Origin: an uncultured Candidatus Saccharibacteria bacterium
GTDB taxonomy: Bacteria; Patescibacteriota; Minisyncoccia; Phycocordibacterales; CSBR16-119
Reading direction: 5' to 3'
NCBI GenBank assembly: GCA_964355515.1
Contig: CAYHDV010000003.1
Span: 7,914 to 71,913 of the forward strand
DNA: 64,000 bases
Both the position numbers and the translations under genes were made by a program. The notes below the pieces were generated by a model. The model saw only the letters and a program-made list of their open reading frames with translations, did no database searches and was not told where the DNA came from. This document shows positions 10,241 to 64,000 of the stretch, in pieces (position 1 is the first letter of the stretch; the number at the start of each line of letters is the position of its first letter).

Positions 10241-10296
10241 CTTTATCGCATATGAAACCCCATTATCTTATCATAATCTATAAGAAATACAATTGA

Positions 10297-10320
10297 AAAG
10301 GGGCTGAACGCCCCTTTTTT
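10297..10320. terminator. Bidirectional terminator hairpin
   Basis: aaaaggggc-tgaac-gcccctttttt. Confidence 0.7.
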
Positions 10321-10516
10321 AAAACTGGATATCCGTGTCATCATGTGGCTCAGGGTCACCTGAAGTAGTATCAAACGAATCCCCATCATCTACATCGAGG
10401 TAGTTTTCTCTTTGGCCATCCTGATTGTGCGAAGATCTATCGATTTTCCCTTGATCATGTTCTCCGTTGGTTTGGAAAATTGAAAATCCTCTTTTCTCTT
10501 TTGGATCTAAACTCAT
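10319..10516 (-). CDS. Small acidic hypothetical protein (65 aa)
   Basis: ORF only. D/E-rich. No homology recognised. Confidence 0.3.
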   Translation of the reverse strand: MSLDPKEKRGFSIFQTNGEHDQGKIDRSSHNQDGQRENYLDVDDGDSFDTTSGDPEPHDDTDIQF

Positions 10517-10546
10517 TTTTTTGAACTATTTTACATTTAGTATATC

Positions 10547-10927
10547 CTAAATACTCAATATTTCAACTTTTGCAGTTTTTTCTTCTTGATTTATTAGGAC
10601 GGATAACAATTTTATCTCTGTTTCACATGAAACATCATTATTCATAATATACATCTCAACAGCCTTCAAAAATCTTTCAATTTTCTTTGGGTGCATGTTT
10701 TCCGCAGGATTATATGTTTCATGTGAAACATCAAGCTTTTTTATACTACTTTTTACTTCAAAAAAATAAATAATTTTAGATTTTTTGGCAATTATGTCTA
10801 TTTCTCCTTGTTTTAAGGTAAAATTTCTCTCAATAATAGAAAAACCTTTACTTTTTAAATACCTAACAGCCAAATTTTCGCCCAATTCCCCTATTTGTTG
10901 AGTTTTTGATGTAAATACTCTAATCAT
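10547..10927 (-). CDS. yraN: YraN/UPF0102-family endonuclease
   Basis: GELGENLAVRYLKSKGFSIIERNF...GEIDIIAKK...FFEVK, the classic YraN N-terminal and PD-(D/E)xK-like pattern. Confidence 0.8.
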   Translation of the reverse strand: MIRVFTSKTQQIGELGENLAVRYLKSKGFSIIERNFTLKQGEIDIIAKKSKIIYFFEVKSSIKKLDVSHETYNPAENMHPKKIERFLKAVEMYIMNNDVSCETEIKLLSVLINQEEKTAKVEILSI

Positions 10928-10933
10928 ACAAAT

Positions 10934-10957
10934 TACTTAGAGGTTCAACCTCTAAGT
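10934..10957. repeat. REP-like palindrome cttagaggttCaacctctaag, abutting the RAYT stop codon
   Basis: 8-bp stem cttagagg/cctctaag with a 5-nt loop. The same element sits at 11406, 11615 and 11751. Confidence 0.7.
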
Positions 10958-10958
10958 C

Positions 10959-11597
10959 TTAGTCCAGCAAAAGATTGTCTAGTTTTTTGTCTTCCTGTCG
11001 CCTTTCTGCAATGGCATGCACAAGACCAAGGCTATTTTCTCGATAGTCTTCACTATTTTGGTATTGTCCTAGAATAATATCTGGATGTACGAGCTTTTTA
11101 GATGTTTCATGTGAAACATATTCAGGCCAACTGGATACATATAAATCCCCTTCTCCAAGGCCATGAACCATATAATTCAGGTTTACATATGCTCCAAGGT
11201 AAAGTAAATATTCGTTTGTGGCAATATGTTTCACTTTATATCGTCCCTGAAAAAGTGACCCCGATCGTTCATATTTATCGTTAAAGTACATAGTATATCC
11301 TGTGCCAACCTTCTGCATAAACTTTTCGATACCACCTTCAACAAGTGGTGTTAAAATCATATGAAAATGGTTTGGGTTTAAACAAAAGGCTACAATCTCA
11401 ACCAACTTAGAGGTTGAACCTCTAAGTTTTCCATACTTCATCACATGCAATCCACCAAATGAGTCAATTGTATTTAATTTGTTTAAATGCCGAAGAAAAA
11501 CCTTCAAATCTTCTTTGTCTTGGAATACCGTTCGTTTATCTACACCGCGATTGTATACATGGTAGTATTCTCCAGGCATAAGTGATATACGTTTCAT
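10959..11597 (-). CDS. IS200-like Y1 (HUH) transposase / REP-associated tyrosine transposase (RAYT)
   Basis: YHVYNRG N-terminal block, HuH motif (NPNHFHMIL) and catalytic Tyr context (QGRYKVKHI). Flanked by REP-like palindromes. Confidence 0.8.
   Translation of the reverse strand: MKRISLMPGEYYHVYNRGVDKRTVFQDKEDLKVFLRHLNKLNTIDSFGGLHVMKYGKLRGSTSKLVEIVAFCLNPNHFHMILTPLVEGGIEKFMQKVGTGYTMYFNDKYERSGSLFQGRYKVKHIATNEYLLYLGAYVNLNYMVHGLGEGDLYVSSWPEYVSHETSKKLVHPDIILGQYQNSEDYRENSLGLVHAIAERRQEDKKLDNLLLD
11406..11426. repeat. REP-like palindrome inside the RAYT ORF (in-frame, encodes KLRGSTSKL)
   Basis: Exact copy cttagaggttgaacctctaag within the coding sequence, between the N-terminal block and the HuH motif. 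Confidence 0.7.
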
Positions 11598-11614
11598 ATG
11601 AAACAGTGTAGCAC

Positions 11615-11635
11615 TTAGAGGTTGAACCTCTAAGT
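11615..11635. repeat. REP-like palindrome 18 bp upstream of the RAYT start
   Basis: Exact copy. Confidence 0.7.
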
Positions 11636-11750
11636 AAAGTCTCTTAAACTTGTTAATAACTAAGGTTTTTATTTTATAAAAGACTTTCTCTAATTATAAA
11701 AGACTGTCCTTTATCCACGTTACACCCAAGCTTTTCCACAGAATAAAGGA

Positions 11751-11771
11751 CTTAGAGGTTGAACCTCTAAG
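11751..11771. repeat. REP-like palindrome
   Basis: Exact copy between the RAYT and tRNA-Arg. Confidence 0.7.
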
Positions 11772-11898
11772 TCATCACCGGGCTGATTGAGGCTCTACTT
11801 ACGCCATTCTTCTGGCAGTTCATCCTTATAGTATCCCTTGATACCAGTAAAAAACAAAGAAAACCCACTGCTTTTGCAGTAGGTTTTCTTTGTTTTTG

Positions 11899-11970
11899 TG
11901 CACCCGGAGGGATTCGAACCCCCAACGACGGTTCCGAAGACCGGTATGATATCCATTTCACTACGAGTGC
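11899..11970 (-). tRNA. tRNA-Arg (anticodon UCG)
   Basis: Minus-strand cloverleaf. Acceptor gcactcg/cgggtgc (one G-U), D gtga/tcat, anticodon loop cttcgga, T-arm ggggg-ttcgaat-ccctc. Terminator hairpin downstream. Confidence 0.7.
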
Positions 11971-12141
11971 ATTTTCTTTTTGATTTGCTTGATATCTCAA
12001 GAATAATCCTTATTCTTACATAGTTTCACATGAAACAGTTATGTACCAACAAAACAATACGAGAATTGTACGATATATCCCCAAATAAAGCAATATTTTT
12101 CTATAAAAGCTGATATAATAAAAGAGTTAATAATTAAATAT

Positions 12142-17686: not shown

Positions 17687-19402
17687 ATGAAGTACCTTGT
17701 AAACATAGTGCTAATACTTACTGTTTTGGTGGGTATTTCAGCATGTCAAACGACACCAAAGGATGACCTCCAGATAGTCAACGCTCTTGTAGATGAATCT
17801 CAAGATGCGATCCAAAATAAACTGGATGACAAGGAAAAAGAGGAAATCCTCGAAAAGCTGTATCCAATGCTTGACGCTATTGATTTTAAAATTGATTCAC
17901 TGGAAAGAGAAATTAAAAATCTTCCAACTGATCATCACAAAAGAAAATCAGGGAGTCAAGATTTAAAAACCCTTGAAGATCTTCGTGGGAAAGTGAATGG
18001 GCAAACCGGAGTCCTCCAATCTTCAATGACAGGACCAGTCCCTGAGAAATATTTGACTTGGGGATTAAGTGCTCATCAGAAAAGAGAGGACGTAATAAAA
18101 GAGAGGCAAGCTGAGATTCGGATTGAAATTAGGATTGACTCTCTTCAGGCGCTGCTTGAGGCGATGCCTGATACAGCTCTTACTCGATCTGCTTTCAGTG
18201 ACTCTCTTTTTGAGAGGGAAGCCTTTCTCCTTAATCAATTGGATAGCTTACAAGGTCTTATTGTGAAAGATTCTCAAGATTCAACCCAAACAATAGCTAT
18301 TATCGATGAAGCTCCTGACGACAAGCAATATCTTACACAATCAGAGGGCACTCAAGTGCCTTCTCCTAAAAAAGAGACCCAGGCTAGCATAAAGAAACAA
18401 GATACTGCTAGTGAAGATTTTTCTCTGAGTAAGATCATTCTCGTATATGGAGGAGTACTGCTTGGCTTTGTTTTTATTTTTCTTCTTTTAATAGAGAAGG
18501 TTCGTAGAGCAATGTGGAGGGGTTTAGTGAGGATTTTTGGAAGAAGACTCCTTGTTCTCGGAGCTTCTGTTACAGCTCTTTATCTCTCTGTAAAAGCAGC
18601 AGGGTTGTGGAATTGGATACTTTCATTGTTGGGAAAGATATTTCTTCTAAGATTTATCGATGGGATTACAACCAAGCTTTGGTTAAGGAGGACTCTAAAG
18701 ACGATTGTCGTTTTTGGTTTATTACTTTTCTTTCTATTTTGCACTGATTATGGAATTGGTGTAAAAAATTGGATCATAAAAAGTGTTTCTCAAATCTCAA
18801 TACCCAACTGGATGGGAGATCTATCATGGTGGAAAGTGGTTTTGGTTGGAGTAGGACTTCTGATTATCTTTCTTATCTACAGGTATTGGTCAGTGATACG
18901 ATTGATGATATCTGGAATTAGTGGAAGAGTTTGGTTTTGGTTAATTTTTCTAAGCCTTCTCTCCTTATTAGTTTTCCTAACTTGGTATCACTGGGATCCA
19001 ATAAAAGATTTCATATATGCCAAATTGAAGACTGAGGAAGTCATAGAAGAGTGGCCAAAAGAAGAAGATTCAAGTCCTGCAGAGGAAAAGAGGGAGCCTT
19101 CTCCAGGGGAGAAAGAGGAGGTGGTTGATCCTAATGAAATAGAAATCATCCCCCCTCCGAACCCTTTTCCGGAAGAGACTGAAGGTGATCAGAAAAAAGA
19201 ACTTTTGGAAAAAAGAAAAAAGAAAGACCAAAAGAAAAAACTTAAACCTGAAAACCAGAATCGGAAAAAGAAGTTTAAAAAGCCTTCACGAAAAAGAGGC
19301 GTAGGAAGAGACCTTGCCGCAAAAAAAGATCTGAAGCTCCTTCCTGGGTACGCACCTGGGACAAGCACAGAAAATTCAAAGCAGGTGAGACGTATTGATT
19401 GA
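17687..19402 (+). CDS. Hypothetical lipoprotein/membrane protein (571 aa) with coiled-coil, four or five TM helices and a K/E-rich tail
   Basis: Lipobox LVGISAC, followed by helical and TM segments and a lysine-rich C-terminus. Terminator at 19407-19436. Confidence 0.6.
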   Translation: MKYLVNIVLILTVLVGISACQTTPKDDLQIVNALVDESQDAIQNKLDDKEKEEILEKLYPMLDAIDFKIDSLEREIKNLPTDHHKRKSGSQDLKTLEDLRGKVNGQTGVLQSSMTGPVPEKYLTWGLSAHQKREDVIKERQAEIRIEIRIDSLQALLEAMPDTALTRSAFSDSLFEREAFLLNQLDSLQGLIVKDSQDSTQTIAIIDEAPDDKQYLTQSEGTQVPSPKKETQASIKKQDTASEDFSLSKIILVYGGVLLGFVFIFLLLIEKVRRAMWRGLVRIFGRRLLVLGASVTALYLSVKAAGLWNWILSLLGKIFLLRFIDGITTKLWLRRTLKTIVVFGLLLFFLFCTDYGIGVKNWIIKSVSQISIPNWMGDLSWWKVVLVGVGLLIIFLIYRYWSVIRLMISGISGRVWFWLIFLSLLSLLVFLTWYHWDPIKDFIYAKLKTEEVIEEWPKEEDSSPAEEKREPSPGEKEEVVDPNEIEIIPPPNPFPEETEGDQKKELLEKRKKKDQKKKLKPENQNRKKKFKKPSRKRGVGRDLAAKKDLKLLPGYAPGTSTENSKQVRRID

Positions 19403-20150: not shown

Positions 20151-21083
20151 TTATTTTTTATTTCCATGAAACTTTTTATGAATTTCTTTTAGGTGTTTGT
20201 TTGTAACGTGGGTATAGATTTGAGTGGTAGAAATATCTGCGTGTCCAAGCATAACCTGCACAGACCTAATATCAGCTCCATTTGAAAGCAAGTCAGTGGC
20301 GAAACAGTGTCGAATCACATGGGGGGTAACCTTCTTTGTGATGCCGGCGATGGTGGCGTACTTTCTCACAATCCTTCCAACAGATCTTCTATCTAAACCT
20401 TTTTCATCATCTACTTTGTTTTTGTTTTTTGAGACATTTACAAATAGTGCTTCCGAGAAGTCTTTTCGTTGTGTGAAATATTTTTTTAGGGAATCTTTGG
20501 CTTCTGCAGATAGAAATACTACTCGGAGTTTGCCACCCTTTCCTCTAATCGAAAATTCATCTCGAGAAAAATCAATGTCTCTAAAGAGGGAACAGAGCTC
20601 TGACACACGGAGGCCAGTAGAAAAAAGCATCTCTAGTATCGCCTTGTCTCTATATCTGATTTCTAAATTCTTTTCTTTTTCGGGAGCCTCTAGGAGCCTC
20701 TTTAGTTCCTGATCTGAAATAACATCAATTTGTCTTTGGGGGACTTTTCCTAGTTCAATCTGTTCTGAAGAAAGAGTTTTTTCTCCTCGTCTTGTCATGT
20801 ATTTCAAAAAAGACCGCAAGGCAATCAGGTGATAGTTCTGAGTACTCTTTGAGAGTGTTTCTCCTGTTCTTCTGTTGTGGCTGGCTCCGGCTGATTGTCT
20901 GTGAAGCCAAATCCGAAACTCTCTCACCATGTCATCTGTTATTTGCTGTGGCTTGGTGGCCCCTGTTTGTTTCAAGAAGACATTTAGATAGTGGTCGTAG
21001 TTTCTAATAGTATTCAAAGCTCGACCTTTTTCGATTTCTAGATACTCAAGAAACTGTCTTTTTAATTTTTCTAAATCATTCAT
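20151..21083 (-). CDS. Site-specific tyrosine recombinase, XerC/XerD family
   Basis: N-terminal SAM-like core-binding domain. Catalytic R..HxxR..Y region (LRVSEL, HVIRHCFATDLL, TQIYTHV). Confidence 0.85.
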   Translation of the reverse strand: MNDLEKLKRQFLEYLEIEKGRALNTIRNYDHYLNVFLKQTGATKPQQITDDMVREFRIWLHRQSAGASHNRRTGETLSKSTQNYHLIALRSFLKYMTRRGEKTLSSEQIELGKVPQRQIDVISDQELKRLLEAPEKEKNLEIRYRDKAILEMLFSTGLRVSELCSLFRDIDFSRDEFSIRGKGGKLRVVFLSAEAKDSLKKYFTQRKDFSEALFVNVSKNKNKVDDEKGLDRRSVGRIVRKYATIAGITKKVTPHVIRHCFATDLLSNGADIRSVQVMLGHADISTTQIYTHVTNKHLKEIHKKFHGNKK

Positions 21084-21180
21084 TTGTTTATTGTCTCACA
21101 ATATAAGAATAGTGGGGAGCTTGTATCTTGGGGAATAAAGAAGAGGTCTTAGTTTTTTATAAAATATATATCTTTCTTTT

Positions 21181-21608
21181 TTCTTGGTAAAATACCCATT
21201 ACTTTTTTATGAGAAAAAAGTAATCAAAAACTCAGACCTGATTCAAAAAGCCTAAAAAATACTCTTTCTCCCTACACTCAGCAGATCGCTGCGCTAATGC
21301 TTCGTGCTTAACGCTCGAAAGAATGTTTTTCTTAACGGCATTTTGAAAACGGTCGAAAGAGCCATTTAAAGAACATCTTCTCACTTTCCGACACTTGAGC
21401 TTTAACTTTAAAAATATTCACGGTTTTTTTGATTAGTGCGTAGCTTTAGCGATAGCGATCAGCGTAGCACCAAAAAAACCGTGAGTTATTTTTTAGGTAA
21501 AGTGAGGTGTCTAGATTTTTTGTTTCTTTTTTATCGATGAAAAAAGAAAGATAATCTTGTTGTGAAAAATGATGGATATTCTGGATCCCCGCCTGCGCGG
21601 GGAAGACA
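21181..21608. repeat. 428-bp direct repeat, copy A (upstream region of the Xer gene)
   Basis: More than 90% identical to 23326-23753. Contains the palindrome ttacttttttatgagaaaaaagtaa, a long hairpin cacggttttttt...aaaaaaaccgtg, and a terminal GC hairpin ggatccccgcctgcgcggggaagac. Confidence 0.85.
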
Positions 21609-21770
21609 AGAGTGTGTACTGAGAAAAAATGGTTTAGATCCTGAAACCCAACTCTACACAAGGCTACTTTGGATACGGTGAGCTCAGGATGACGAGATTG
21701 GGGTATTGGGATGACCCCACCCAAGGTGGACAGGATTCAGGATGATTTGTAGTGAGTACGGTAGACTTTT

Positions 21771-23252
21771 TTATTCCGAAACTTTATAAAAATATCCGTC
21801 ACGACTTCCAAAATAAATTCCACCATCCCAGATAGCGGGAGTAGATTCTATACATCCATCTCCAACTTTTTTCTGCCACAAAAATTCTGGAGAACTGGGG
21901 TCTGTTAGTGAATATGCTTCGATGCTTCCTGTTTCACAAGTGGCAAAAATAAGTGTGGCATCCACAATAGAGGGTGACGACCATTCGTGCATTCCTATGT
22001 CTTTTCTCCAAACAACCTTTCCATTGTTTTTGTCTACAACTAAAAACTCTCCCAAGTGAGTCGGTACATATATATAATCTTCGTAGATAGCTGGGGTTGC
22101 CCAAATGCCACTTTTTATTTTTTCAGAACCACTTGAGATAGACAGGCTCCAGACCACGGGATTTTTTTTCTTTGGATTCAGTTTTATTAATTGCCCTAAA
22201 TCTTTGCCCCTTTCATTGAATCTCTCTTCTTCCACTGCTACATATATTGCACCTGTCCCATCTGTTACCATGGTGGCATCGATATCATCTCCAACCCAAA
22301 AATCAAAAACCAGGGCCTCCTTTTTGTTTCTTATTTTCTTTATATCAAATCCCATGATCCTGCCACCGCTATTTGCAACATAGACAACGTCATCCACTAC
22401 GAGAGGTGAGTTCTCAATTGAGAGGTTTTGGTCTGTTAGAGAAACCAGCTCCTCATTGTAGCTAATATACTGATAAATAATTTCAGGATTTACCAAGGCC
22501 CTTCCTTCTTCATCATATGTGCGGTTGAGCTCTATTGCATAGAAAATTCCGTTTTCTCCTCCTTCATACATCACACCGTCGACTATTACAGGATTGCTAT
22601 CCCAGTCATTGTTCCAAATCCCATCAGGCAAATCTTCTGAATCAAGAGCCCAAATCTCTGTTGGTACATCTCTATCTAGAGCTATGATGCGAAGCTTGTT
22701 GTCTCGAGACCCACCATAAAGAAGAGGGAATCCATCTGTATCAAGAGTAAAAGATCCTTTGATGATATCTCCAGTCTGGAAATTTGGCCTTGTGTTTTTA
22801 CCTGTTTCACCATTCACAAAGTGTATAGCCCCATCGTACGCACCAAAAATAATTTCTGTGACACCATCCTCACGCTCCCAAACAACCGGCTGGCCTGTCC
22901 AACCAGAACCACACCAATAATTCGTAACTTCTAGTGAAGTTGAATAACGACACATTGGTTTTTCTGGGTATCTCCAAGAAATAGTTGGCTCGGTAGGAAT
23001 CAGACCTTTTCCATAAAAATTCCTCTCTTTGTTTCCCCGAAACATGGTGAGTCCTTTTATTTTTGGTTCGACATCTTTGACTTCTATAACAGAAAGTACT
23101 TGATCAGTGATATCTCCTATCGCCTCTTCTGCAAAAATTTCTTTGTTGTTTAAGTTGAGCGAATATTTCAAATTATATAGGCCTTCCAAAAAAAATAGGG
23201 AAGACCCTATTCCGATAATTAAAGAAACAATTATAGTTAGAAAATTACGCAT
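21771..23252 (-). CDS. PQQ-like beta-propeller repeat protein with N-terminal TM anchor
   Basis: 493 aa. Repeated G-x-hydrophobic-Y/F-A-hydrophobic-D/E/N beta-propeller blades (GAIHFVNGETG, GRIMGFD, GAIYVAV, GSIEAY, GYFYKV). Confidence 0.65.
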   Translation of the reverse strand: MRNFLTIIVSLIIGIGSSLFFLEGLYNLKYSLNLNNKEIFAEEAIGDITDQVLSVIEVKDVEPKIKGLTMFRGNKERNFYGKGLIPTEPTISWRYPEKPMCRYSTSLEVTNYWCGSGWTGQPVVWEREDGVTEIIFGAYDGAIHFVNGETGKNTRPNFQTGDIIKGSFTLDTDGFPLLYGGSRDNKLRIIALDRDVPTEIWALDSEDLPDGIWNNDWDSNPVIVDGVMYEGGENGIFYAIELNRTYDEEGRALVNPEIIYQYISYNEELVSLTDQNLSIENSPLVVDDVVYVANSGGRIMGFDIKKIRNKKEALVFDFWVGDDIDATMVTDGTGAIYVAVEEERFNERGKDLGQLIKLNPKKKNPVVWSLSISSGSEKIKSGIWATPAIYEDYIYVPTHLGEFLVVDKNNGKVVWRKDIGMHEWSSPSIVDATLIFATCETGSIEAYSLTDPSSPEFLWQKKVGDGCIESTPAIWDGGIYFGSRDGYFYKVSE

Positions 23253-23325
23253 GGTGGATATTAAGATGGGCTTAGTTTATCATAAAACTAGTTATGGGGA
23301 AGGATTTAGAAACCTTCTCTATTTC

Positions 23326-23753
23326 TTCTTGGCAAAATACCCATTACTTTTTTATGAGAAAAAAGTAACCAAAAACTCAGACCTGATTCAAAAAGCCTAA
23401 AAAATAATCTTTCTCACTACACTCAGCAGATCGCTGCGCTAATGCTTCGTGCTTAACGCTCGAAAGAATACTTTTCTTAACGGCATTTTGAAAACGGTCG
23501 TACGAGCCACCCAATTAAGAATTGCAATACATCCCGACACTTGAGCTTTAACTTTAAAAATATTCACGGTTTTTTTGATTAGTGCGTAGCTTTAGCGGTA
23601 GCGATCAGCGTAGCACCAAAAAAACCGTGAGTTATTTTTTAGGTAAAGTGAGGTGTCTTGGCTTTTTGTTCCTTTTTTGCCAAGAAAAAAGGAAGGTATT
23701 CTTGTTACGAAAAAGTGATTGATATCCTGGATCCCCGCCTGCGCGGGGAAGAC
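23326..23753. repeat. 428-bp direct repeat, copy B (upstream region of the beta-propeller gene)
   Basis: See copy A. Confidence 0.85.
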
Positions 23754-42177: not shown

Positions 42178-44238
42178 ATGAGCCTTTTCGACAAACTAAC
42201 AAAAAAAGATATCAAACCAACAGGTCCACAAGCGCTCCCTGTTCTTCCTGAGGAAATATACAAGACTGCAAACCTAGAGTTGCAAGATATCCTAGCTCCC
42301 GGAGCTTTGAAAATCCAACCCAAGACCCTCAACCTCGGAGAGGAGCTTGCTCGAACATATTTTGTGGTTTCCTATCCAAGATACCTGACAGACAATTGGT
42401 TTACACCTATCATCAACCTAGACAAGATTTTCGATGTTTCTATTCATATTCATCCAGTAGATACATCCACAATCCTTAAAAAGTTTGAAAAAAAGGTAGC
42501 CGAAGTACAAAGTCAAATCGAGGCTCGTTCAGAAAAAGGTGTCGTGCGAGACCCAATTCTCGACACCGCATATCATGACTTGGAAGACCTGCGGGACAAT
42601 CTCCAGCAGGCACAGGAGAAAATATTTGAAGTAGGGCTATACATCACAATATACGCAAAGACAGAAAAAGAGCTTTCTGAAATAGAAACAAAGATTAAGT
42701 CTATATTGGAATCAAAGTTGGTTTACCTCAAGCCAGCACTCTTCCAACAAAAAGAAGGTTTCTTGAGTACCATGCCAATTGGCGATGACCAGCTAGCTGT
42801 CCACCAAAAGATGAATTCTGCACCACTGTCCTCTCTATTTCCTTTTGTTTCTTTTGACCTTACAGATGAGAAGGGGATCCTCTATGGGATAAACAGACAA
42901 AACTCAAGTTTGGTTATTTTTGATAGATTCTCTATGCCAAACTACAACTCAATCACCTTTGCCACCTCAGGAGCCGGGAAATCTTTTGCAACAAAACTTG
43001 AGGTATTGCGTTCCATGATGTTTGATACAAACGTAATTGTTATCGACCCAGAGCGAGAGTATGAGTCTCTTGCAGAAGCAGTTGGTGGACGATTCTTCAA
43101 CATCTCTCTTTCTTCAGAGCACCATATCAATCCATTTGATCTACCAAAACCAAGTGAAGATGAAACACCAGCGGATGTTCTTCGGGGGACAACCATTAGT
43201 CTCGTGGGACTATTTCGAATCATGCTTCAGGGTCTAACTCCAGAAGAAGATGCTATCGTGGACCAGGCTATCACCCAAACATACGCCCTAAAGGATATCA
43301 CCGCCGAGGGAAGCTTTGAGGGGAAAGAACCTCCACTTCTTTCTGATTTTGAAATGGTCTTGCAAGGGATGGATGGTACAGATTCTGTTCTACAAAAACT
43401 TTCCAAATTTACAAGTGGGTCTTGGTCTACATTTATGAATAAGCCCACAAACGTGGATATTGATAAGAAATTCATTGTATTTTCTGTACGAGACATGGAA
43501 GACGACCTCAAGCCTGTTGCCATGTATCTTGTAACCCAATTCATCTGGACAGCTATTCGAAAAAATATCCAAAAAAGAATTCTAGTGGTGGATGAGGCTT
43601 GGTGGATGATGAAATCAGAAGATACCGCAAGCTTCCTATATAGCATGGCAAAGCGAGGAAGAAAGTATTACCTAGGGCTTGCCACAATCACCCAAGACGT
43701 GGGGGACTTCATGCGGTCAAAATATGGAGTGCCTATTGTTACAAACTCTTCTATTCAGCTTCTTTTGAAGCAATCACCAAGCACTATTGATGTTCTCCAA
43801 AAAACATTCAACCTGACCGATGAAGAAAAATACCTTCTTCTTGAGGCAAACGTGGGTGAAGGGATATTCTTTGCCGGCCTAAAACACGTTGCAATTAAAA
43901 TCATTGCTTCATATACCGAAGAGCAGATTATCACCTCAGATCCTGCCCAGATTCTGGCAATCCAAAGAGCAAAAATAGAAAAGAGAGAAGTTGCTGCTGT
44001 GGTAGAAGAACAAAACAAAGAAAAAATACAAACTGTCATGAAAGAACAAGCTCAAATCCAAAAAGATAAAGAGCTTGAAGAAAATTTGCGTATCAAAGAA
44101 GAAGTAACTGAGGCCAAAAAAGAAGAGGTTTCTCTCCCCGATAGCACAGCTCCAAAAGAAACTAATTCTCTCCAAAGTTTCTCTGACAATCTAGATAGTG
44201 AAATATCAACACTTGAGAACGAACTTGGGGGATTCTAG
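42178..44238 (+). CDS. VirB4/TrbE/CagE-family T4SS ATPase (part 2, ATPase domain)
   Basis: YPRYL motif, Walker A SGAGKSF, DPEREY, Walker B ILVVDEAWWM. 686 aa. Different frame from part 1, with a 5-bp gap. Confidence 0.85.
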   Translation: MSLFDKLTKKDIKPTGPQALPVLPEEIYKTANLELQDILAPGALKIQPKTLNLGEELARTYFVVSYPRYLTDNWFTPIINLDKIFDVSIHIHPVDTSTILKKFEKKVAEVQSQIEARSEKGVVRDPILDTAYHDLEDLRDNLQQAQEKIFEVGLYITIYAKTEKELSEIETKIKSILESKLVYLKPALFQQKEGFLSTMPIGDDQLAVHQKMNSAPLSSLFPFVSFDLTDEKGILYGINRQNSSLVIFDRFSMPNYNSITFATSGAGKSFATKLEVLRSMMFDTNVIVIDPEREYESLAEAVGGRFFNISLSSEHHINPFDLPKPSEDETPADVLRGTTISLVGLFRIMLQGLTPEEDAIVDQAITQTYALKDITAEGSFEGKEPPLLSDFEMVLQGMDGTDSVLQKLSKFTSGSWSTFMNKPTNVDIDKKFIVFSVRDMEDDLKPVAMYLVTQFIWTAIRKNIQKRILVVDEAWWMMKSEDTASFLYSMAKRGRKYYLGLATITQDVGDFMRSKYGVPIVTNSSIQLLLKQSPSTIDVLQKTFNLTDEEKYLLLEANVGEGIFFAGLKHVAIKIIASYTEEQIITSDPAQILAIQRAKIEKREVAAVVEEQNKEKIQTVMKEQAQIQKDKELEENLRIKEEVTEAKKEEVSLPDSTAPKETNSLQSFSDNLDSEISTLENELGGF

Positions 44239-50050: not shown

Positions 50051-50194
50051 TTATCTATCTGAAGTAGAAAGAGATGCTCGGCCCTTTCTTCGTCGTGCTT
50101 GGAGAATGTTTTTACCAGACCCTGTTTTTGACCGAGACAAAAAACCGTGTGTTTTTGCCCGTTTTTTAGTTTTTGGATTGTATGTAAATGACAT
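50051..50194 (-). CDS. rpmH: 50S ribosomal protein L34
   Basis: Not in the ORF track (47 aa). Manual translation gives MSFTYNPKTKKRAKTHGFLSRSKTGSGKNILQARRRKGRASLSTSDR, matching the L34 consensus, immediately upstream of rnpA. Confidence 0.8.
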   Translation of the reverse strand: MSFTYNPKTKKRAKTHGFLSRSKTGSGKNILQARRRKGRASLSTSDR

Positions 50195-50399
50195 AAAGAG
50201 GAGTATACATCAGCTATTAAAACAAATCAAGTTTTTTCGGAGATATATCCTGTTTGGCTTTTTTGGGTTTTGCATAAAAGAATATGTTTGTCGAATCGAG
50301 TTTGTTGGGTTTTTTATATTGCTCGTGTATAATTATCCACAGGTTTTAAACAGAAAACTCTTTTTCTATAGAAAAGAAAAAGACCGCTATAATGTTTTT
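50195..50399. promoter_or_regulatory. rpmH-dnaA divergent intergenic region with a perfect DnaA box
   Basis: TTATCCACA at about 50330. AT-rich. Divergent promoters expected. Confidence 0.5.
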
Positions 50400-51758
50400 A
50401 TGCAATCAGACACCATCAACAACAAAGAGCTCTGGGGAAGATGTTTAGAGGAGCTGGAGGGTCAACTTTCAAAGGCTAATTTTTCTACATGGTTTCAGAA
50501 CACTCATATATACAAGAGAGATCATGGTATTGCGACAGTTGGTGTTCCAAATGAATTTGTAAAAGAGTGGCTTGGAACCAAATATACAAAGCTAATATTA
50601 AAAACTGTTATGGTTTTTGACCCAGGGGTTCGAAATATTGAATTTACAATATCAAAGTCAGAACCAAAAGAAGAAAAACGTACTCATTCCTTCGGCTCAC
50701 CTTATGGGGGAGAGCTCCCTCTTCAAAATTTATATATAAACAAAGATGACAATCTAAACCCTAGATATACTTTTGATACATTTGTTGTTGGGTCATTTAA
50801 CGAGCTGGCTTATGCCGCCGCTCAAGCCATAATCAAGAACCCGGGGAGTTCTTATAATCCATTTTTTATCTATGGACAAACTGGGCTAGGGAAGACTCAC
50901 CTTATCCAAGCAATTGGAACTGAAATCAAAAAGAAACACCCTGGGAAAAAGGTTCATTATGTTACACTTGAGAAATTCTCCCTTGATTATGTTACCTCTC
51001 TTCAAAAAAATAGACCAAATGAATTTAAACAAAAGTACAGACAATATGATGTGATTATCATGGATGACATTCAGTTTCTTTCTGGAAAAGAAAAAACGCA
51101 AGAGGAGCTCTTCCACCTATTCAACACCCTCTATGAACAAAACAAACAAATTGTCTTTTCTTCAGATAAACACCCAAACTATATTCCTGGATTAGAGGAC
51201 CGTCTGAAGTCTAGGTTTGGTTCCGGTATGATAGTGGATGTTTCTGTACCAGAATATGAGTCCAGACTTGCTATTATTAAGTCCAAGATCAAAGAATCAG
51301 ATGTTGATCTCTCAGATGAGGTCAAAGATTATATAGCTTCATCTATGGAAGGAAGTATCCGAGAGCTAGAGGGAAGCCTAAATACCATATTGTGTCAGGC
51401 TCAGCTAAAAACAAAGCCCATGACCCTGTCTGAGGTTAAAAGCCTTATAAAAAACAATATCAAACCAAAAAGAAATGTATCTATTACAGATATTGTAAAA
51501 ATTGTTACTGATTTCTATAATATAGGAGAACAATCTGTATATGAAAAGACTAGAAGAAAGGAAATTGTTAAGGCAAGACAAATTATAATGTATATTTTAA
51601 GAGAGGACTTTAACATCTCTTATCCGATGATTGGTCAAAAGCTTGGAGGAAAAGACCACACGACTGTTATTCACTCTTGTTTAAAAATTAAACAAGAGCT
51701 GTTGGAAAAAACAGACCTTGTGGATGATCTCGAAAGACTACGTCTTATTTTCAAATAA
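50400..51758 (+). CDS. dnaA: Chromosomal replication initiator DnaA
   Basis: AAA+ Walker A GQTGLGKTHL. C-terminal DnaA-box-binding HTH. Start set at MQSDTINNKELW; the ORF-track extension upstream overlaps rpmH and was rejected. Confidence 0.9.
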   Translation: MQSDTINNKELWGRCLEELEGQLSKANFSTWFQNTHIYKRDHGIATVGVPNEFVKEWLGTKYTKLILKTVMVFDPGVRNIEFTISKSEPKEEKRTHSFGSPYGGELPLQNLYINKDDNLNPRYTFDTFVVGSFNELAYAAAQAIIKNPGSSYNPFFIYGQTGLGKTHLIQAIGTEIKKKHPGKKVHYVTLEKFSLDYVTSLQKNRPNEFKQKYRQYDVIIMDDIQFLSGKEKTQEELFHLFNTLYEQNKQIVFSSDKHPNYIPGLEDRLKSRFGSGMIVDVSVPEYESRLAIIKSKIKESDVDLSDEVKDYIASSMEGSIRELEGSLNTILCQAQLKTKPMTLSEVKSLIKNNIKPKRNVSITDIVKIVTDFYNIGEQSVYEKTRRKEIVKARQIIMYILREDFNISYPMIGQKLGGKDHTTVIHSCLKIKQELLEKTDLVDDLERLRLIFK

Positions 51759-52016
51759 AGTGTGGAAAGGTCTGTGGAAATTGATGAATAACGAAAGAAA
51801 AAGGCGTTGGTAAAAAAAGAATAACTGGTACTTTATAAACAGTGTTATTAAAAAATAAAAAGTTATTATTAGTAATAGTGATTGTGTTATCAAGTTTTTA
51901 ACAAGAGATATCCTAAATAAGCTTTATATAGTCTTACCAAAACCAGTTATCCACTTATTAACACCCCTAATAGTAATAATAAGTTATATATAGAAGAAAC
52001 AAACACCTGCTTTATT
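51759..52016. promoter_or_regulatory. Candidate oriC (dnaA-dnaN intergenic)
   Basis: AT-rich 258 bp with DnaA-box-like 9-mers (TGTGGAAAG, TGTGGAAAT, TTATCCACT at about 51940). Confidence 0.55.
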
Positions 52017-53120
52017 ATGAAAATAAAAACAAACATCCAAAAATTAAGAAACGCTATTATTCAAGCAGATAAGATAACTAGTAAAAACGCTAGTCATCCA
52101 GTTCTTGGTTCTATATTACTGAAGACAAATAAAGATTCTTTGAGTATTAGATCAACAAATCTTAGTCTTGGAATTGATATCACCATAAAAGCCACAGTTA
52201 TTGAGGAAGGAGAGGTGGCTGTATATGGATCTCTTCTTGTGGGTATTTTTTCATCATTATCAAGTAAGGAGGAGGTTTCTCTTGATTTGATAGATAAGAC
52301 TCTTTCTATCTCTGCTCAAGGTGTTAATCTTATTGTTAATACCTTAGAGACAGAGGAATTTCCTTCTATACCACAAGTCCAAGGTCTAACAATCTCTGTT
52401 CCTGTAAAAGTACTCTTAAAAGGACTAAGGTCTGTTTTTTATTCAGCTTCTGTTTCTGACATAAAACCCGAGATTTCTAGTGTTTTTATGTATCCAGAAA
52501 ACCAAGAATCTCTTGTTTTTGTTTCGACTGATACCTTTAGGCTTGCAGAAAAATTTGTAGAGATAGAGACCCTTCCTGATTTTGAGGGAATACTTATACC
52601 ATTTAAGAACATTTCAGAAATAATAAGAGTCCTTGGTGACAATGAAGAAAACTCCGTAGAAGTTATATTTAACAAAAATCAGATATCTTTTAAATCAGAT
52701 GATGTATATCTTACTTCTAGATTGGTAGATGGGGGATTCCCTGACTACAGGCAGATTATCCCAAAAGAGTTCAAAACCCAAGTTATTGTTTTGAAACAAG
52801 ATCTTATAAATGCTCTACGGCTCGCAAATATCTTCTCAGACAAGTTTAATCAGGTAACCATGGTGATTGACCCAAAAGCAAGCATTTTTGAGATCTCATC
52901 GAAAAGTAGCGGAGTTGGAGAAAATAGTACAACACTAGAGGCGACCCTTTCAGGAGAGCCAATTACCTTGAATATTAACTACAAGTATCTTCTTGATTGT
53001 TTCCAATCTATTCTTGAAGATAGTGTGGTTCTAGAATTTACCGAGTCCAGGAAGCCAATGATTGTAAAAGGTATTTCCAACAAAACTTTTATGTATCTTA
53101 TAATGCCAATTAATCGATAG
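52017..53120 (+). CDS. dnaN: DNA polymerase III beta sliding clamp
   Basis: 367 aa. Three-domain clamp architecture. Canonical position after dnaA. Confidence 0.9.
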   Translation: MKIKTNIQKLRNAIIQADKITSKNASHPVLGSILLKTNKDSLSIRSTNLSLGIDITIKATVIEEGEVAVYGSLLVGIFSSLSSKEEVSLDLIDKTLSISAQGVNLIVNTLETEEFPSIPQVQGLTISVPVKVLLKGLRSVFYSASVSDIKPEISSVFMYPENQESLVFVSTDTFRLAEKFVEIETLPDFEGILIPFKNISEIIRVLGDNEENSVEVIFNKNQISFKSDDVYLTSRLVDGGFPDYRQIIPKEFKTQVIVLKQDLINALRLANIFSDKFNQVTMVIDPKASIFEISSKSSGVGENSTTLEATLSGEPITLNINYKYLLDCFQSILEDSVVLEFTESRKPMIVKGISNKTFMYLIMPINR

Positions 53121-60259: not shown

Positions 60260-61972
60260 TTAATATACTTCAGACAAGTCAACAGATCGCTCTACTTCTT
60301 CGAGAGTTGTTATCCCTTTAAGAATTTTTATAACCCCGTCTTCTTGCATTGTTAGAAATCCTTGTTTGGCAGCGACTTCTCGTATTTCTCTTTCACTTGG
60401 GTTTGTGGGTATTATTTTTTCTATTTGCTCATCTGCTGCCACAGCTTCAAACACACCGAGTCTGCCTTTATATCCAGTTGGAGCTTTGTCGCAGCCAACA
60501 GGAGAGAAAATCACATATTCCTTTTTTTCTATGAGAGAAATATCTATTCCATATTTACTAAAATCTTTTCCTTGAGAAATTCCATGTTTGAGTACTTGGA
60601 GTATTTTTTTATGCTCGTCTTCTGTTGGAGGTAGACTCTTTTTTGTCTCTGGATAAAGAACGCGAACAAGTCTTTGAGCAATAGCGAGAGAAAGGGCAGA
60701 AGGAATAGTCTTTGCATTTACCCCAAGATCAATAAGCCTGGGGATTGCTCCTGCCGCATTGTTTGTGTGGAGAGTGGAGAACACGATGTGTCCAGTAAGA
60801 GCGGACTCCACAGCAATCTTGGCTGTTTCCCCATCTCGGATTTCTCCCACCATGATTACCTCTGGATCTTGGCGAAGAGCACTTCGAAGTCCTTCTAGAA
60901 AAGTGTAGCCTTTTCTCTGGTCAACCTGAGTTTGGGTGATTCCTCGTAGGTGATATTCGACAGGATCCTCGATGGTGATAATCTTTTTCTCAGTAGAGTA
61001 GATTTTTTGGAGGAAAGAATAAAGACTTGTTGTCTTCCCGGAACCAGTAGGTCCGGTAAGGATTATAAGCCCATTTGGTTTTGATATTTCTAGAGTTACT
61101 CTTTCAAGTAAATATGGATCCATACCCAGGCTTTCCATTCCCACCTGAATATTCCTAGGGTCAAGAAGCCTCATAACGAGAGATTCTCCATAAGCTCCAG
61201 GGATGGCTGAAGATCGAATATTAATTTCTTCACCTTCAATCATGATAGAGAAACGACCATCTTGGTTTTTGTTCATGATGGTGATTTTCATCCCAGATAA
61301 GAGCTTGATTCTTGCTCGAAGAAGTTTAAACATAACCTCTGGAAAAGAAATAATCTCTTGGAGGATGCCATCTATTCGAAGACGAAGACGGATAGAATCT
61401 TCTTCTGGCTCAACATGGATATCAGAGGCACCGAGCCCAATACTTGCAGCAAGAATAGCTTCAAGGAGAGTGGAAACAGAAGAAGATCCTCCTTGGTCAA
61501 CAATTTCTTGAAGAACCAACCTTGCTGTTTTTAGAGTTTTTGTTTTTTCTTTTAAGGTTTCAAGTGATTCATTGTGAATATCAAGACTTCCTTTGCTTGA
61601 TTGCTTGGTTAGAGAGATTTCTTTGTACCTTGCGAGAACTTTGTTTACACTTCTCTCCGACGCCATAAAAAGGTTTGGATGATATCCTTGTTTTTTTAAT
61701 TCTTCAACCAAAAGAGAGGTCAGTTCTGATTCTGGTGAACGAACAGCCAGGTCGACACTCTTTCCTTTTATATGGAAAGCTCCAACCATGGCTTCTCTTG
61801 CCACTTCTTCTGGAACTGTCTCCATAGCTGAGTTTTCTATGATTACTTGCTGGAGGTTTATATAGGGTAGATCAAATTTTGTGCTCGCAAGCATTTGGAT
61901 CAGGTCTTCCTCCTCTTCTTTCCGAAACTCTTGGAGTTTTTGGTTTTGATAGTCGTCTTTAAAAGTTGCCAT
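60260..61972 (-). CDS. pilB: Type IV pilus/type II secretion assembly ATPase, PilB/GspE family
   Basis: Walker A GPTGSGKTT. Asp box, His box. C-terminal Zn-binding Cys pair. 570 aa. Confidence 0.85.
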   Translation of the reverse strand: MATFKDDYQNQKLQEFRKEEEEDLIQMLASTKFDLPYINLQQVIIENSAMETVPEEVAREAMVGAFHIKGKSVDLAVRSPESELTSLLVEELKKQGYHPNLFMASERSVNKVLARYKEISLTKQSSKGSLDIHNESLETLKEKTKTLKTARLVLQEIVDQGGSSSVSTLLEAILAASIGLGASDIHVEPEEDSIRLRLRIDGILQEIISFPEVMFKLLRARIKLLSGMKITIMNKNQDGRFSIMIEGEEINIRSSAIPGAYGESLVMRLLDPRNIQVGMESLGMDPYLLERVTLEISKPNGLIILTGPTGSGKTTSLYSFLQKIYSTEKKIITIEDPVEYHLRGITQTQVDQRKGYTFLEGLRSALRQDPEVIMVGEIRDGETAKIAVESALTGHIVFSTLHTNNAAGAIPRLIDLGVNAKTIPSALSLAIAQRLVRVLYPETKKSLPPTEDEHKKILQVLKHGISQGKDFSKYGIDISLIEKKEYVIFSPVGCDKAPTGYKGRLGVFEAVAADEQIEKIIPTNPSEREIREVAAKQGFLTMQEDGVIKILKGITTLEEVERSVDLSEVY

Positions 61973-62129
61973 AGGTAAATTATAGCTTACTTGCTACTTT
62001 TCCCGCGGGGAATATGGGTAAAAAGCCTCTTTCTAGACAACCCAAAAAGAGACTGAGGGGGTATTGACAATACAATCCTTTTATGCTAGACTTAACAAAA
62101 ATAGAAACAGAACCTTAAAAACCAAGAAC

Positions 62130-64000
62130 ATGAAAAAAACAGTCATGATTTTGCTGATGATGGTTTCCTTTGCTGGAAATCTCTTGGCGCAGAAAAAAGA
62201 TGCTTGCACCAAGCCGTTCGCGGCTATGGGTGAGTATCAGGAATTCCTTGTTGAAGATGGCTTTTCGGAGTCAGAAGCACAAGACGCAGCCGTGGGGAGC
62301 CTCGTGGCTTTTCATACCGGGGGAGACATGAATTACAAAGGGGTCGATTACTCCTTTGTGGGCGCAAAAAGCATCCACAACTCTGACTTCGAGTCAGAGG
62401 GTAATCGACTAACCCTTTTCCATCACCATTTGAGGATGATGGAAAGCGCTCTCCGCATAAGCGGTCAGCGTCCGGTGGATTATGTTCTCTCTGAGGGCGA
62501 GGCCCGTATGATTCTCAAAGATTCAATCTCCATTTCGGTGGAGGTTGTCACACAACCATTCCAAATCATGAACTCGATGTGGGACATGTGTAACGACAGG
62601 GCCACAGAGACCCTGGATACACTGGCTGTTGGAGAAACCTTTGTGAATTTTCTTTTGGGAGACATCGTCCTTTTCAGGGTGAAACTTAAATGTTCAAACC
62701 CGTTTCCTGGCCCGCTTCAAATGAAGGAGGTCTTAGAAAAAGAAGTAGTCGTTCACCTAACATGGGAAGACGATGAAAGACAAAGGAAAGAGAACGTGGG
62801 CGATACAACCATCGTGAAAAAAGAGGCTTCTTCTGGCGGTGCGACCGCAAGCGTTGGAGATATCAATATCACCAACGAGATCAGCGGCCTTGGAGGGCAA
62901 CTATCTCAGGCTGGATATTATCCAGGACCGGGGTTTTATGCTTCTGCATCTGTGGGGATGAGTGCTGGTTACCAGCCCATGTATAGCGGTGGAGGGATGG
63001 TTGGTTTTGGTGGCAATAGCTGCTATGGGCCTTCTTTGTCTCTCAACTTCTTCTGTTACTTGTTCAATTCGAACAATAACACATGGCAACAATCGAACGG
63101 TCAGGGTGGTTATACAAGTTGTGGGAATCCTTTCTACGGAGGGGATACATACAATTACTATTACAACATTTATGAGGACAATTCCACGACAATCGTGGAC
63201 TCATACAATGTTGATGACCATTCTTATGTCGACAACAGCAACGTGATCAATTGGATGGGTGGAACCCTTCCAAACGATTCAACCCCTGGTGGAGGTGGAG
63301 ACAATCCTAATCCATTGCCAAACGATTCAACCCCTGGTGGAGGCAGTGAAAAACGTGATTTCTCAAGTCGAGATCTCGCTGTTAAGACGATTCCAAAGAC
63401 CAAGGAAACAACTGCCTCTAGAGACCTTGCGGTTTCAAGGCAGGAGCCGAGGAAGGTTGATGTTCAGCCAAGCAAGAGTGTTGGGAAAGTGAGCTTGCCT
63501 GCGATGGTGACTGGCACGAGAGATCTTAATGTAAAACAGATCAATCGTAATCCCGGGAAGGTGACAATGGCTACTGCAATTCGAGAATCTGTTCAACCCG
63601 CTAAAAGTCATCAACCTGAAAGGGTGACCATGGCAGAAGCGAGCACAACTAAATCGATTTCAGAACCGACCAAAAGTCCGTCTGGAGGTAGGGTGACCAT
63701 GGCAACTGCTACTCGAAATGCTGGTACAGCATCTTCCTTGCCTCCAAAGTCTGGAGATCGGGTAAGTATGTCAACAGCCACTCGCGGTCAGTCAGTGACC
63801 GAGCCAAGCCGGAATCAACCTGAAAGGGTAAGCATGGCAATGGCAAGTAAGCCGCAATCTGTTGTAAGTCCGACCAAAAGTCATCAGCCAGAAAGGCTGA
63901 CGATGGCAAATACAAGTCGGCCGCAGGTCCAAGCTCCATCTCCAAACAGAGGAGGTCAAGTAGGAAACTCTCCTGGTAAAACCCTTCAAGCTCCATCGGT
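62130..64000 (+). CDS. Secreted tandem-repeat protein, 3'-truncated by the window end (at least 623 aa). GC-rich relative to the rest of the window
   Basis: Not in the ORF track (no stop in window). Signal peptide MKKTVMILLMMVSFAGNLLA. Open frame to the end of the window. The C-terminal half consists of degenerate repeats of about 25 aa (xRVTMAxAxR...PxKS) plus a 48-nt exact tandem duplication (PNDSTPGGG). Confidence 0.6.
   Translation, partial: MKKTVMILLMMVSFAGNLLAQKKDACTKPFAAMGEYQEFLVEDGFSESEAQDAAVGSLVAFHTGGDMNYKGVDYSFVGAKSIHNSDFESEGNRLTLFHHHLRMMESALRISGQRPVDYVLSEGEARMILKDSISISVEVVTQPFQIMNSMWDMCNDRATETLDTLAVGETFVNFLLGDIVLFRVKLKCSNPFPGPLQMKEVLEKEVVVHLTWEDDERQRKENVGDTTIVKKEASSGGATASVGDINITNEISGLGGQLSQAGYYPGPGFYASASVGMSAGYQPMYSGGGMVGFGGNSCYGPSLSLNFFCYLFNSNNNTWQQSNGQGGYTSCGNPFYGGDTYNYYYNIYEDNSTTIVDSYNVDDHSYVDNSNVINWMGGTLPNDSTPGGGGDNPNPLPNDSTPGGGSEKRDFSSRDLAVKTIPKTKETTASRDLAVSRQEPRKVDVQPSKSVGKVSLPAMVTGTRDLNVKQINRNPGKVTMATAIRESVQPAKSHQPERVTMAEASTTKSISEPTKSPSGGRVTMATATRNAGTASSLPPKSGDRVSMSTATRGQSVTEPSRNQPERVSMAMASKPQSVVSPTKSHQPERLTMANTSRPQVQAPSPNRGGQVGNSPGKTLQAPS

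Follow-up and report, generated by a model that had tools for sequence, protein, structure and literature searches.

The gene treated here lies at the right-hand end of a 64,000-nucleotide stretch of contig CAYHDV010000003.1; this stretch is the window, to which all positions refer unless they are labelled as residues (aa) or as belonging to a contig or locus (L). The product of the gene, X, is encoded at 62130..64000 on the forward strand (aa 1-623 of 674). X is inherited in place together with pilB, from which it diverges, and with Y, the gene downstream; its architecture is conserved, its sequence is not. On balance, we take X to be an exported, modular, fast-diverging protein of this chromosomal slot, probably acting at the cell surface or in host contact, as an adhesin-like or envelope-tethered component. 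A recent horizontal insertion and repeat slippage, both raised in the preliminary description of the gene, are not supported, because the ratio of nonsynonymous to synonymous divergence (dN/dS) is 0.19 and the repeat number is unchanged between two strains.

X is inherited in place beside pilB

The frame of X opens with ATG at 62130 and is still open at 64000. That the gene finds no stop codon in the window and runs past its end, as first described, is correct, and extension of the contig yields the 3' end: an overlapping contig from an independent Logan assembly (L001), 100% identical to the window across the shared 1871 nt, places the stop 154 nt beyond the window end, for a complete gene of 2025 nt and 674 aa with an exact-match full-length protein, P0001. 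A promoter scan finds a sigma-70-like promoter on the same strand (TTGACA, 17 nt, TAGACT, with TG before the -10 element) at 62064..62092 (L001 9935-9963). The stop codon is followed by a terminator, formed by an 11-bp GC-rich stem-loop and a T-run. The gene beyond it is separate and has a promoter of its own, so that X is a monocistronic unit. On the other side lies pilB (60260..61972, reverse strand), the conserved left border of the slot, which encodes a PilB/GspE-family ATPase (Pfam T2SSE, 5e-112; the NCBIfam PilB and GspE models both score below their cut-offs).

A second strain, represented by locus L164 from a different sequencing run, carries an allele of X (P0002) that is 92% identical at the amino acid level. 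Between the window strain (L001; X at 10001-12025, Y from 12205) and this strain, pilB shows a dS of 0.18 and a dN of 0, whereas X shows a dS of 0.22, a dN of 0.041 and a dN/dS of 0.19, divided into 0.11 for the N-terminal head, 0.20 for the Gly/Tyr/Asn-rich segment and 0.26 for the tail. With such a dN/dS and a dS near that of pilB, X must be functional, under purifying selection and co-diverged with pilB; it is a real gene. An assembly artefact as the source of its repeats, which the preliminary description had allowed for, is excluded by the independent allele and by the purifying selection. The dS of Y is only 0.022, ten-fold under that of X and pilB, a drop that points to recent recombination with a breakpoint between X and Y or close by.

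Homologues of X are few. When 5.8 billion proteins were searched by word index, nothing came up beyond the query cluster, which includes P0002, and an exhaustive phmmer search of 1.84 billion representative proteins found two homologues only, P0003 (680 aa, E 3e-22) and P0004 (709 aa, E 2e-13), each ~30% identical to X over its full length. The called start of P0003 lies too far downstream (L162:1390-1430); an in-frame ATG 24 nt upstream restores a signal peptide, MKNIMLILLMVFSVAGKALAQ, that matches the one in X. Beside the P0003 gene, in divergent orientation, lies a pilB; its product and the PilB of the window share 76% identity over the 409 residues available. At this locus X has therefore evolved much faster than its neighbours (30% identity, compared with 76% for PilB). 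Despite ~30% protein identity, the promoter element TTGACAA...ATGCTA(G/C)ACT and the leader AGAAC(C/T)TTAAAAAC are kept there. At the P0004 locus the gene order is PBP1a-TyrRS-RuvC-YebC-RuvB-PilB and then, divergently, P0004, a 919-aa protein, TsaE and PolA; the window itself carries dnaA, dnaN, a PBP1a gene, tyrS, ruvC, a yebC-family gene, ruvB and pilB.

Among 160 PilB-anchored loci, pilB and tsaE/polA most commonly adjoin each other directly in divergent orientation, separated by 20-200 nt. At this junction some of the loci, in a patchy distribution, have an insert, either of 1-1.3 kb (X only) or of 4.6-5.2 kb (X and Y). The first gene of the insert, the positional orthologue of X, always encodes a signal-peptide protein, and the second gene of the long inserts is homologous to the gene downstream of X (tblastn E 1e-18 to 1e-6, 11 loci). 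The synteny of P0003, P0004 and the Y homologues assigns X to a slot of the form pilB / X / Y / tsaE-polA, and this slot, with pilB divergent from X and followed on the X side by Y, tsaE and polA, recurs across Paceibacteria. Within it, Y, a large protein probably of the cell surface, usually comes after X. Y proteins have 770-1070 aa, a signal peptide, DUF11/B_ant repeats and a C-terminal transmembrane (TM) anchor, and this partner is recognisably conserved, with a C-terminus of the form ...GFWPxTLIGWL... followed by basic residues. Y genes are found at L001:12205-13179, just past the window end, and, all on the reverse strand, at L015:5438-8245, L027:5358-8219, L088:2086-4419, L108:1480-3858 and L030:6293-8677. 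The fuller C-terminal motif of Y, LGAxALFGxGFWPxTLIGWL, is conserved to a striking degree, leads into the TM helix and a basic stop-transfer stretch, matches none of the NCBIfam CTERM models and looks like an undescribed anchoring or sorting signal.

PilB also bears on the identity of the host. Its relatives in GTDB species representatives all belong to Paceibacteria, Nomurabacteria and other Patescibacteria metagenome-assembled genomes, at <=57% identity; when GTDB representatives and JGI metagenomes are taken together, full-length matches are likewise <=57% identical, and two partial fragments reach 62-65%. This marks the host as one of the ultrasmall bacteria of the Candidate Phyla Radiation (CPR), from a poorly sampled lineage, and by its PilB sequence it is Paceibacteria/Nomurabacteria-like.

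The positional orthologues are too divergent for routine searches. A tblastn search with X against the 160 loci gave nothing significant; hidden Markov models (HMMs) of X, P0003 and P0004, full-length or per region and with filters off, did not lift the positional orthologues above background; and searches with 18-sequence and 3-sequence alignments, both uninformative, returned only the query cluster. An all-vs-all phmmer comparison of the positional orthologues links only L004/L006/L085, L027/L105 and, weakly, L042. Other signals are shared more widely. A MAFFT alignment of 18 N-domains, trimmed at a Cys-x-Asn (CxN) anchor that was picked by eye, has three invariant columns: a Pro near the mature N-terminus, Cys188 and Asn190. 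Asn/Tyr-rich windows occur in 6 of 15 positional orthologues and in 14 of 925 background open reading frames (ORFs), and strongly positive tails in 6 of 15 and 59 of 925, respectively. With signal peptides removed, hhalign connects the X-family N-domain to the L083/L014/L108/L088 group with a score of 31.4 (E 1.7e-4, 49.5% probability, 58 columns ending at CxN). Reversed profiles score 10.8±1.9 (maximum 15.4), and profiles with permuted columns but CxN kept score 12.5±1.8 (maximum 18.5; 0 of 40 reach the real score). The same group links onward to L004/L006/L085. These comparisons are good evidence, although not proof for every member, that the positional X proteins represent one fast-diverging family. 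X itself combines all of the features proposed for such a family: a signal peptide, an N-domain running to Cys-x-Asn, a Gly/Tyr/Asn-rich segment and a place in the pilB/(Y-)tsaE-polA slot. No described family matches X, and the literature searched seems to contain no account of the positional family. Lineage-specific secreted ORFans are common in CPR genomes.

Two other relationships were tried and rejected within the window. A lipoprotein gene at 17687-19402, whose product has a GRDLAAKK stretch, is not a paralogue, the resemblance being one of chance (E 19). Nor is X the target of a diversity-generating retroelement: no part of X has a second copy in the 64-kb window, so that there is no template/variable repeat pair, and no reverse transcriptase domain occurs in the window ORFs scanned.

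Domain architecture and repeats

X was first described as a signal-peptide protein, and its N-terminus agrees. Read from the sequence, aa 1-20 (62130..62189, forward strand, as are all the segments that follow) form a classical n-h-c Sec-type signal, MKKTVMILLMMVSFAGNLLA, followed by QKK (cleavage region NLLA/QKK). The same N-terminus is found in P0003 (start corrected), P0004 and the positional orthologues. The lipobox Cys is lacking at position +1 of the cleavage site, the first Cys of X being aa 26; a class III signal (G/FxxxE) is absent as well, and no pilin family in Pfam or NCBIfam matches. The mature protein begins with an acidic folded N-domain, the head (aa 21-200, 62190..62729). A Pro (TKPF) stands close to its mature N-terminus, and the domain closes with FRVKLKCSNP; Cys188-x-Asn190 is encoded at 62691-62699. 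A charged linker, EKEVVVHLTWEDDERQRKENVGDTTIVKKEASSGG (aa 201-235, 62730..62834), follows, and the isoelectric point (pI) of aa 21-235 is 4.9. The middle of the protein is a Cys-containing low-complexity segment, rich in Gly, Asn, Ser and Tyr and free of Lys and Arg (aa 236-375, 62835..63254), which leads into a Gly/Pro/Asp/Thr spacer that includes LPNDSTPGG twice (aa 376-406, 63255..63347). The remainder is a polycationic tail, rich in Ser, Pro, Thr and Gln, that looks disordered (aa 407-674, 63348..64000, ending beyond the window). Residues 401-674 have a pI of 11.6, 42 Lys and Arg, no Cys and no hydrophobic segment, and they end, outside the window, in ...GGLMKGR. Over the full 674 aa there is no LPXTG sortase signal, and the last 60 aa hold no hydrophobic segment (longest run 4), only the basic KGR end. 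By these sequence features, X would be neither a lipoprotein nor membrane-anchored. No uninterrupted Gly-X-Y run and no Pfam Collagen match is present, and searches of X against Pfam, NCBIfam and PDB sequences returned no match.

The two homologues reprise this plan in order. All three proteins have a signal peptide ending in LAQ, then T-x-P-(F/I)-A after cleavage, an N-domain that ends F(R/I)(V/T)K..C-x-N, a segment rich in Gly, Tyr, Asn and Cys that has the motif TYNYYY(N/D)IY(E/N)DNST and in which Cys and Trp are conserved, a Gly/Pro/Thr spacer, and a long basic tail rich in Ser, Thr, Arg and Gln that ends in Arg or Lys. The motifs PGFxASA..GY..GF.G..C...N..C.L.N...W and TYNYYYNIYEDNSTTIV of the middle segment are both kept in P0003 and P0004. 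In these two proteins the spacer consists of collagen-like GPT/GXY runs of ~8-17 triplets, which X does not have; the triplets of P0004 match the NCBIfam Scl2/SclB model weakly (E 1e-5, 24 bits against a cut-off of 325).

AlphaFold2 gave a predicted local distance difference test score (pLDDT) of 28.5 for aa 21-400. For aa 21-198, with four sequences, one of five models reached a pLDDT of 65.7 and a predicted template modelling score of 0.62; in this model, 4-5 helices precede an antiparallel sheet of five strands, which stops just short of Cys-x-Asn. A Foldseek search with the head model found no match in PDB (best E 0.23) or BFVD (best E 0.09).

The repeats of the tail are real and degenerate, but they do not fill the C-terminal half with units of about 25 aa, as had been thought. 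A motif search finds six units of 21-23 aa, of the form (K/R)(V/L)(T/S)M(A/S)xAx...P(S/T/A)KSxxxx, confined to aa 477-611 (63558..63962), with [KR][VL][TS]M[AS] cores starting at aa 477, 498, 521, 544, 566 and 589. The period corresponds to 63-69 nt and the array to ~20% of the protein; only 3 of 20,000 shuffles of the tail contain at least two such cores. Three RDL(A/N)V motifs (aa 414, 431 and 464; 63369..63533) precede the array, and comparable triplicated short motifs occur in the orthologues, TVDLS/TIDLS in P0004 and a REVS type in P0003. Since each orthologue has its own short tail repeats, these represent lineage-specific expansions. The spacer duplication, reported as an exact 48-nt tandem, instead comprises two 42-nt copies (63270-63311 and 63318-63359) that are 83% identical and spaced by 48 nt; they share an exact core of 26 nt (63270-63295 and 63318-63343), and the two copies encode LPNDSTPGG twice.

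An exported protein with in-frame internal repeats (63-69 nt) and a 48-nt-spaced duplication, from a family that diverges fast, could be taken for a contingency locus or variable antigen whose repeat number shifts by slipped-strand mispairing. For X this is scarcely credible. Tandem Repeats Finder, the check suggested at the outset, reports zero arrays on 61900-64000, the unit cores are 50-77% identical at the DNA level, and exact repeats reach at most 16 nt within the tail and 26 nt, in the spacer, over the whole gene. Furthermore, in the one strain pair compared, P0002 (dS 0.22) has the same number of every repeat as X, the sole indels being of 1-2 aa and outside the arrays. Slippage variation of X is not supported.

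Composition and origin

The compositional reference is the 46-49 ORFs of the 64-kb window only, and by this measure X is GC-rich with unusual codon usage, as the preliminary description held. Its GC content is 0.484, the top of all 49 window ORFs (mean 0.387, sd 0.037; z 2.7), its GC at third codon positions (GC3) is 0.458 (z 2.2), and the log-likelihood of its synonymous codons under window usage has a z of -2.7 for the whole gene and -3.7 for aa 2-240. Measured in 1-kb steps, GC is 0.47-0.48 in the last two and 0.32-0.46 elsewhere. The excess is of two kinds. In the C-terminal 274 aa, GC at second positions (GC2) is 0.573 and GC3 is 0.387; a high GC2 with a near-normal GC3 attributes the tail's excess to amino acid composition (Pro, Arg, Ala, Gly, Ser and Thr). 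In the N-terminal 240 aa, by contrast, GC2 is 0.354 and GC3 is 0.533 vs 0.33±0.056 (z ~3.6), the head being the region of X with the highest GC3 (0.53), and this excess is a true synonymous shift. The outlier status of the gene is thus real, but about half of the GC excess is non-synonymous, a matter of amino acid composition. Codons ending in G or C are raised over many amino acids, which has the look of a mutational bias and not of a translational one. Beyond the borders of the gene the anomaly disappears: intergenic GC is 0.37 upstream and 0.27 downstream, and the next gene has a GC3 of 0.286. Both strain alleles have the GC3 excess; P0003 does not (0.37 vs 0.42 for its pilB). A family-wide GC excess was considered and rejected, most positional orthologues being compositionally normal. 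In the same window, ORF 1162-1710 is more extreme in codon usage than X.

Does this composition make X a foreign insertion, as the preliminary description supposed? That X, or its 5' two-thirds, came from a GC-richer organism, either as a new insertion or by xenologous replacement of a resident allele, is possible but on the unlikely side. In its favour are the top-ranking GC, the GC3 and codon bias of the N-domain, the mutational look of the codon shift and its sharp ending at the gene borders. To these may be added the patchy occupancy of the slot, a few positional orthologues that are GC outliers too (L042, L088, L027 and L105), the existence of suitable donors, in that related Paceibacteria have mean GC3 values of 0.22-0.50, and active recombination at this site (Y dS of 0.022 vs ~0.2 for X and pilB). 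Yet both homologues, from the two closest genomes, occupy the same slot with a conserved promoter, and between strains the dS of X equals that of pilB, so that any import must predate the strain split. No mobility signature (integrase, transposase, tRNA or direct repeats) is present within 62-64 kb or downstream in L001, tblastn against phages and plasmids gives no match to X, and no donor-like homologue occurs among the 1.84 billion proteins. Half of the GC excess is accounted for by amino acid composition, and the reference is a 64-kb sample in which ORF 1162-1710 is even more atypical. Of the usual marks of a genomic island, X has the atypical composition, at least relative to the window. 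It is not absent from the equivalent site in relatives, since both homologues hold the same slot and the slot recurs in Paceibacteria.

As a leading guess, offered tentatively, the residual GC3 anomaly would go back to an allele exchange at X, long ago, with a GC-richer relative; this is consistent with the recombination break adjoining the gene. Separately, a Taylorbacteria-like slot protein, encoded at L042:9043-9864 and identically at L115:5043-5864 (both reverse strand), is a stronger GC outlier than X (GC 0.60 vs 0.45, GC3 0.64 vs 0.42, z ~4.5), which suggests that compositionally foreign alleles may recur at the slot. More generally, being a GC-rich outlier does not by itself make a gene a foreign insertion.

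Possible role at the cell surface

We propose that X would be exported by Sec and held non-covalently, through its cationic tail, on the anionic envelope or on Y, with the variable acidic head presented outward. In an episymbiotic cell, X would thus act at the surface or in host contact, as an adhesin-like component. Its repeats would set the length of a spacer or tether rather than serve as a slippage switch, the tail having arisen in part from six old and now degenerate duplications. This reading is suggested by the charge layout of X (head pI 4.9, middle without Lys or Arg, tail pI 11.6 with 42 Lys and Arg) in a protein with no known anchor, by the collagen-like stalks of its orthologues, and by the elaborate surfaces of CPR cells, whose pili and large surface proteins are thought to mediate host attachment (PMC8080830). 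The profile of a fast-diverging, low-complexity exported repeat protein of atypical composition fits a surface or adhesin-like role. An adhesin thus remains plausible, while the slippage-variable antigen that had been named alongside it is not supported.

Several points weigh against this surface reading and against the family on which it draws. The tether and adhesin roles rest on composition and context, X having no recognisable domain, and the head model is of modest confidence, being one of five AlphaFold2 models. The adjacency of X and pilB may be historical rather than functional. A standard three-homologue HMM does not retrieve the positional orthologues, and the case for their homology to X is made by synteny, motifs and a single hhalign link of 49.5% probability, with the by-eye choice of the CxN anchor to be borne in mind. 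The shorter positional orthologues are without a long basic tail, and the tail therefore cannot be essential to the family. Finally, a surface-protein account alone does not explain the GC3 excess of the head, which P0003 and most positional orthologues do not share.

The position of the gene and its basic tail allow another reading, in which X is an extracellular DNA-binding accessory of a type IV pilus or competence system, its tail capturing DNA for PilB-powered uptake. Where present, X always adjoins pilB divergently, its tail has a pI of 11.6 and repeated P(S/T)KS motifs, and CPR bacteria are believed to rely on DNA uptake through pili and ComEC (PMC8080830). However, pilB-tsaE-polA is the ancestral junction, and in most lineages pilB is retained although X is absent; the window has no further pilus genes nearby; Pfam and NCBIfam reveal no helix-hairpin-helix or other DNA-binding domain; the short positional orthologues lack a basic tail; and the signal peptide is of Sec type I rather than that of a prepilin. 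We consider a DNA-capture role highly unlikely. The middle segment invites a further suggestion, that X is a secreted membrane-active effector, a pore former or toxin whose Gly-rich small-xxx-small segment (candidate stretch ASASVGMSAGY...GGGMVGFGG...SLSLNFFCYLF) enters a host membrane, allowing X to extract host resources. The segment is Gly-rich, has no Lys or Arg, and contains amphipathic strand-like stretches. Orthologues conserve it, positional orthologues carry analogous segments, and CPR bacteria lead a parasitic lifestyle. Against this, no X matches a glycine-zipper or toxin family, no immunity-like gene is nearby, and the segment is rich in polar Asn, Tyr and Ser, the reading being drawn purely from composition; we regard it as extremely improbable.

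The surface reading of X finds partial parallels in known systems. Bacterial collagen-like surface proteins include Bacillus BclA, Streptococcus Scl1/Scl2 and those of Pasteuria ramosa that have been implicated in host attachment. Like X, they are exported and fast-diverging, with a variable globular head, a low-complexity stalk and host-contact roles, and P0003 and P0004 have GPT/GXY runs at the spacer where X has LPNDSTPGG twice. Unlike them, no member of the X family matches Pfam Collagen, X has neither LPXTG nor a C1q-like C-terminal domain, and outside the triplets there is no sequence homology. The serine-rich-repeat adhesins and MSCRAMMs (microbial surface components recognizing adhesive matrix molecules) of Gram-positive bacteria share with X a signal peptide, a folded N-terminal region, which in those proteins binds the ligand, long Ser/Thr/Pro-rich repeats and divergence between strains. 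X differs in having no LPXTG, hydrophobic C-terminus, Ig-like/DEv-IgG domains or accessory Sec genes, and its tail is strongly basic rather than composed of SxSx dipeptides. Other surface proteins are bound non-covalently to the wall, examples being the basic wall-binding regions of Lactobacillus S-layer proteins and the GW modules of Listeria InlB. In them, as in X, a region of high pI accompanies a functional domain that is exposed, and the tether proposed here is modelled on them by analogy. X, however, contains no SLH, GW, LysM or SH3b motif, and its tail looks disordered rather than modular. A further parallel is offered by the large membrane-associated surface proteins of Vampirococcus lugosii, of the same superphylum and likewise with type IV pili and an elaborate surface (PMC8080830). 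Those giants have 1392-4163 aa and recognisable domains, with DUF11, which Y carries, among the adhesion-type domains listed (PMC8080830). X, in contrast, has 674 aa and no recognisable domain and is undescribed.

Elsewhere in the window, a beta-propeller (PQQ-like) ORF at 21771-23252 (reverse strand) lies between ~400-nt direct repeats (21171-21607 and 23316-23753) that are 92-94% identical and spaced by 2145 nt, and a tyrosine recombinase/integrase gene adjoins (20151-21083, reverse strand); the 21171-23753 region may be a duplicated or mobile cassette. A 58-nt direct repeat (1005-1062 and 1733-1790, 97% identical) flanks ORF 1162-1710 (reverse strand), which has the most atypical codon usage in the window, a GC3 of 0.525 and no family match. 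Between 35059 and 48634, same-strand signal-peptide and TM ORFs without family matches surround a VirB4/TraC/TraG-like P-loop ATPase (42178-44238); the whole resembles a cluster for type IV secretion or conjugation. An IS200-like Y1 transposase-family gene (10959-11597, reverse strand) sits between tRNA genes, which are located at 8698-8770, 10100-10172 and 11899-11970; ORF 8616-8975 overlaps a tRNA and is therefore spurious, which explains its high GC. The cumulative GC skew has its minimum at ~11-23 kb, not coinciding with dnaA/dnaN (50106-53120).

A more speculative proposal, which we hold to be distinctly doubtful, is that X and Y form a co-inherited host-recognition module. In such a module, Y would be the membrane-anchored stalk and X the tethered ligand, trimeric and collagen-stalked in some lineages, with a head that co-evolves with the host and an exchange of X alleles that switches host range. 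If true, this would explain why X has diverged beyond recognition while the slot, the promoter and the partner are conserved, and the GC3 anomaly and the X-Y recombination break would be traces of allele exchange between lineages.

Host recognition and attachment by uncultured CPR/Patescibacteria are largely unexplained outside Saccharibacteria. The slot described here offers a concrete candidate that can be found by position: a protein family that evolves too fast for homology searches, paired with a membrane-anchored DUF11 protein. Should X prove to determine host contact, the slot could mark host-range diversification in metagenomes; otherwise X is simply another surface ORFan specific to its lineage.

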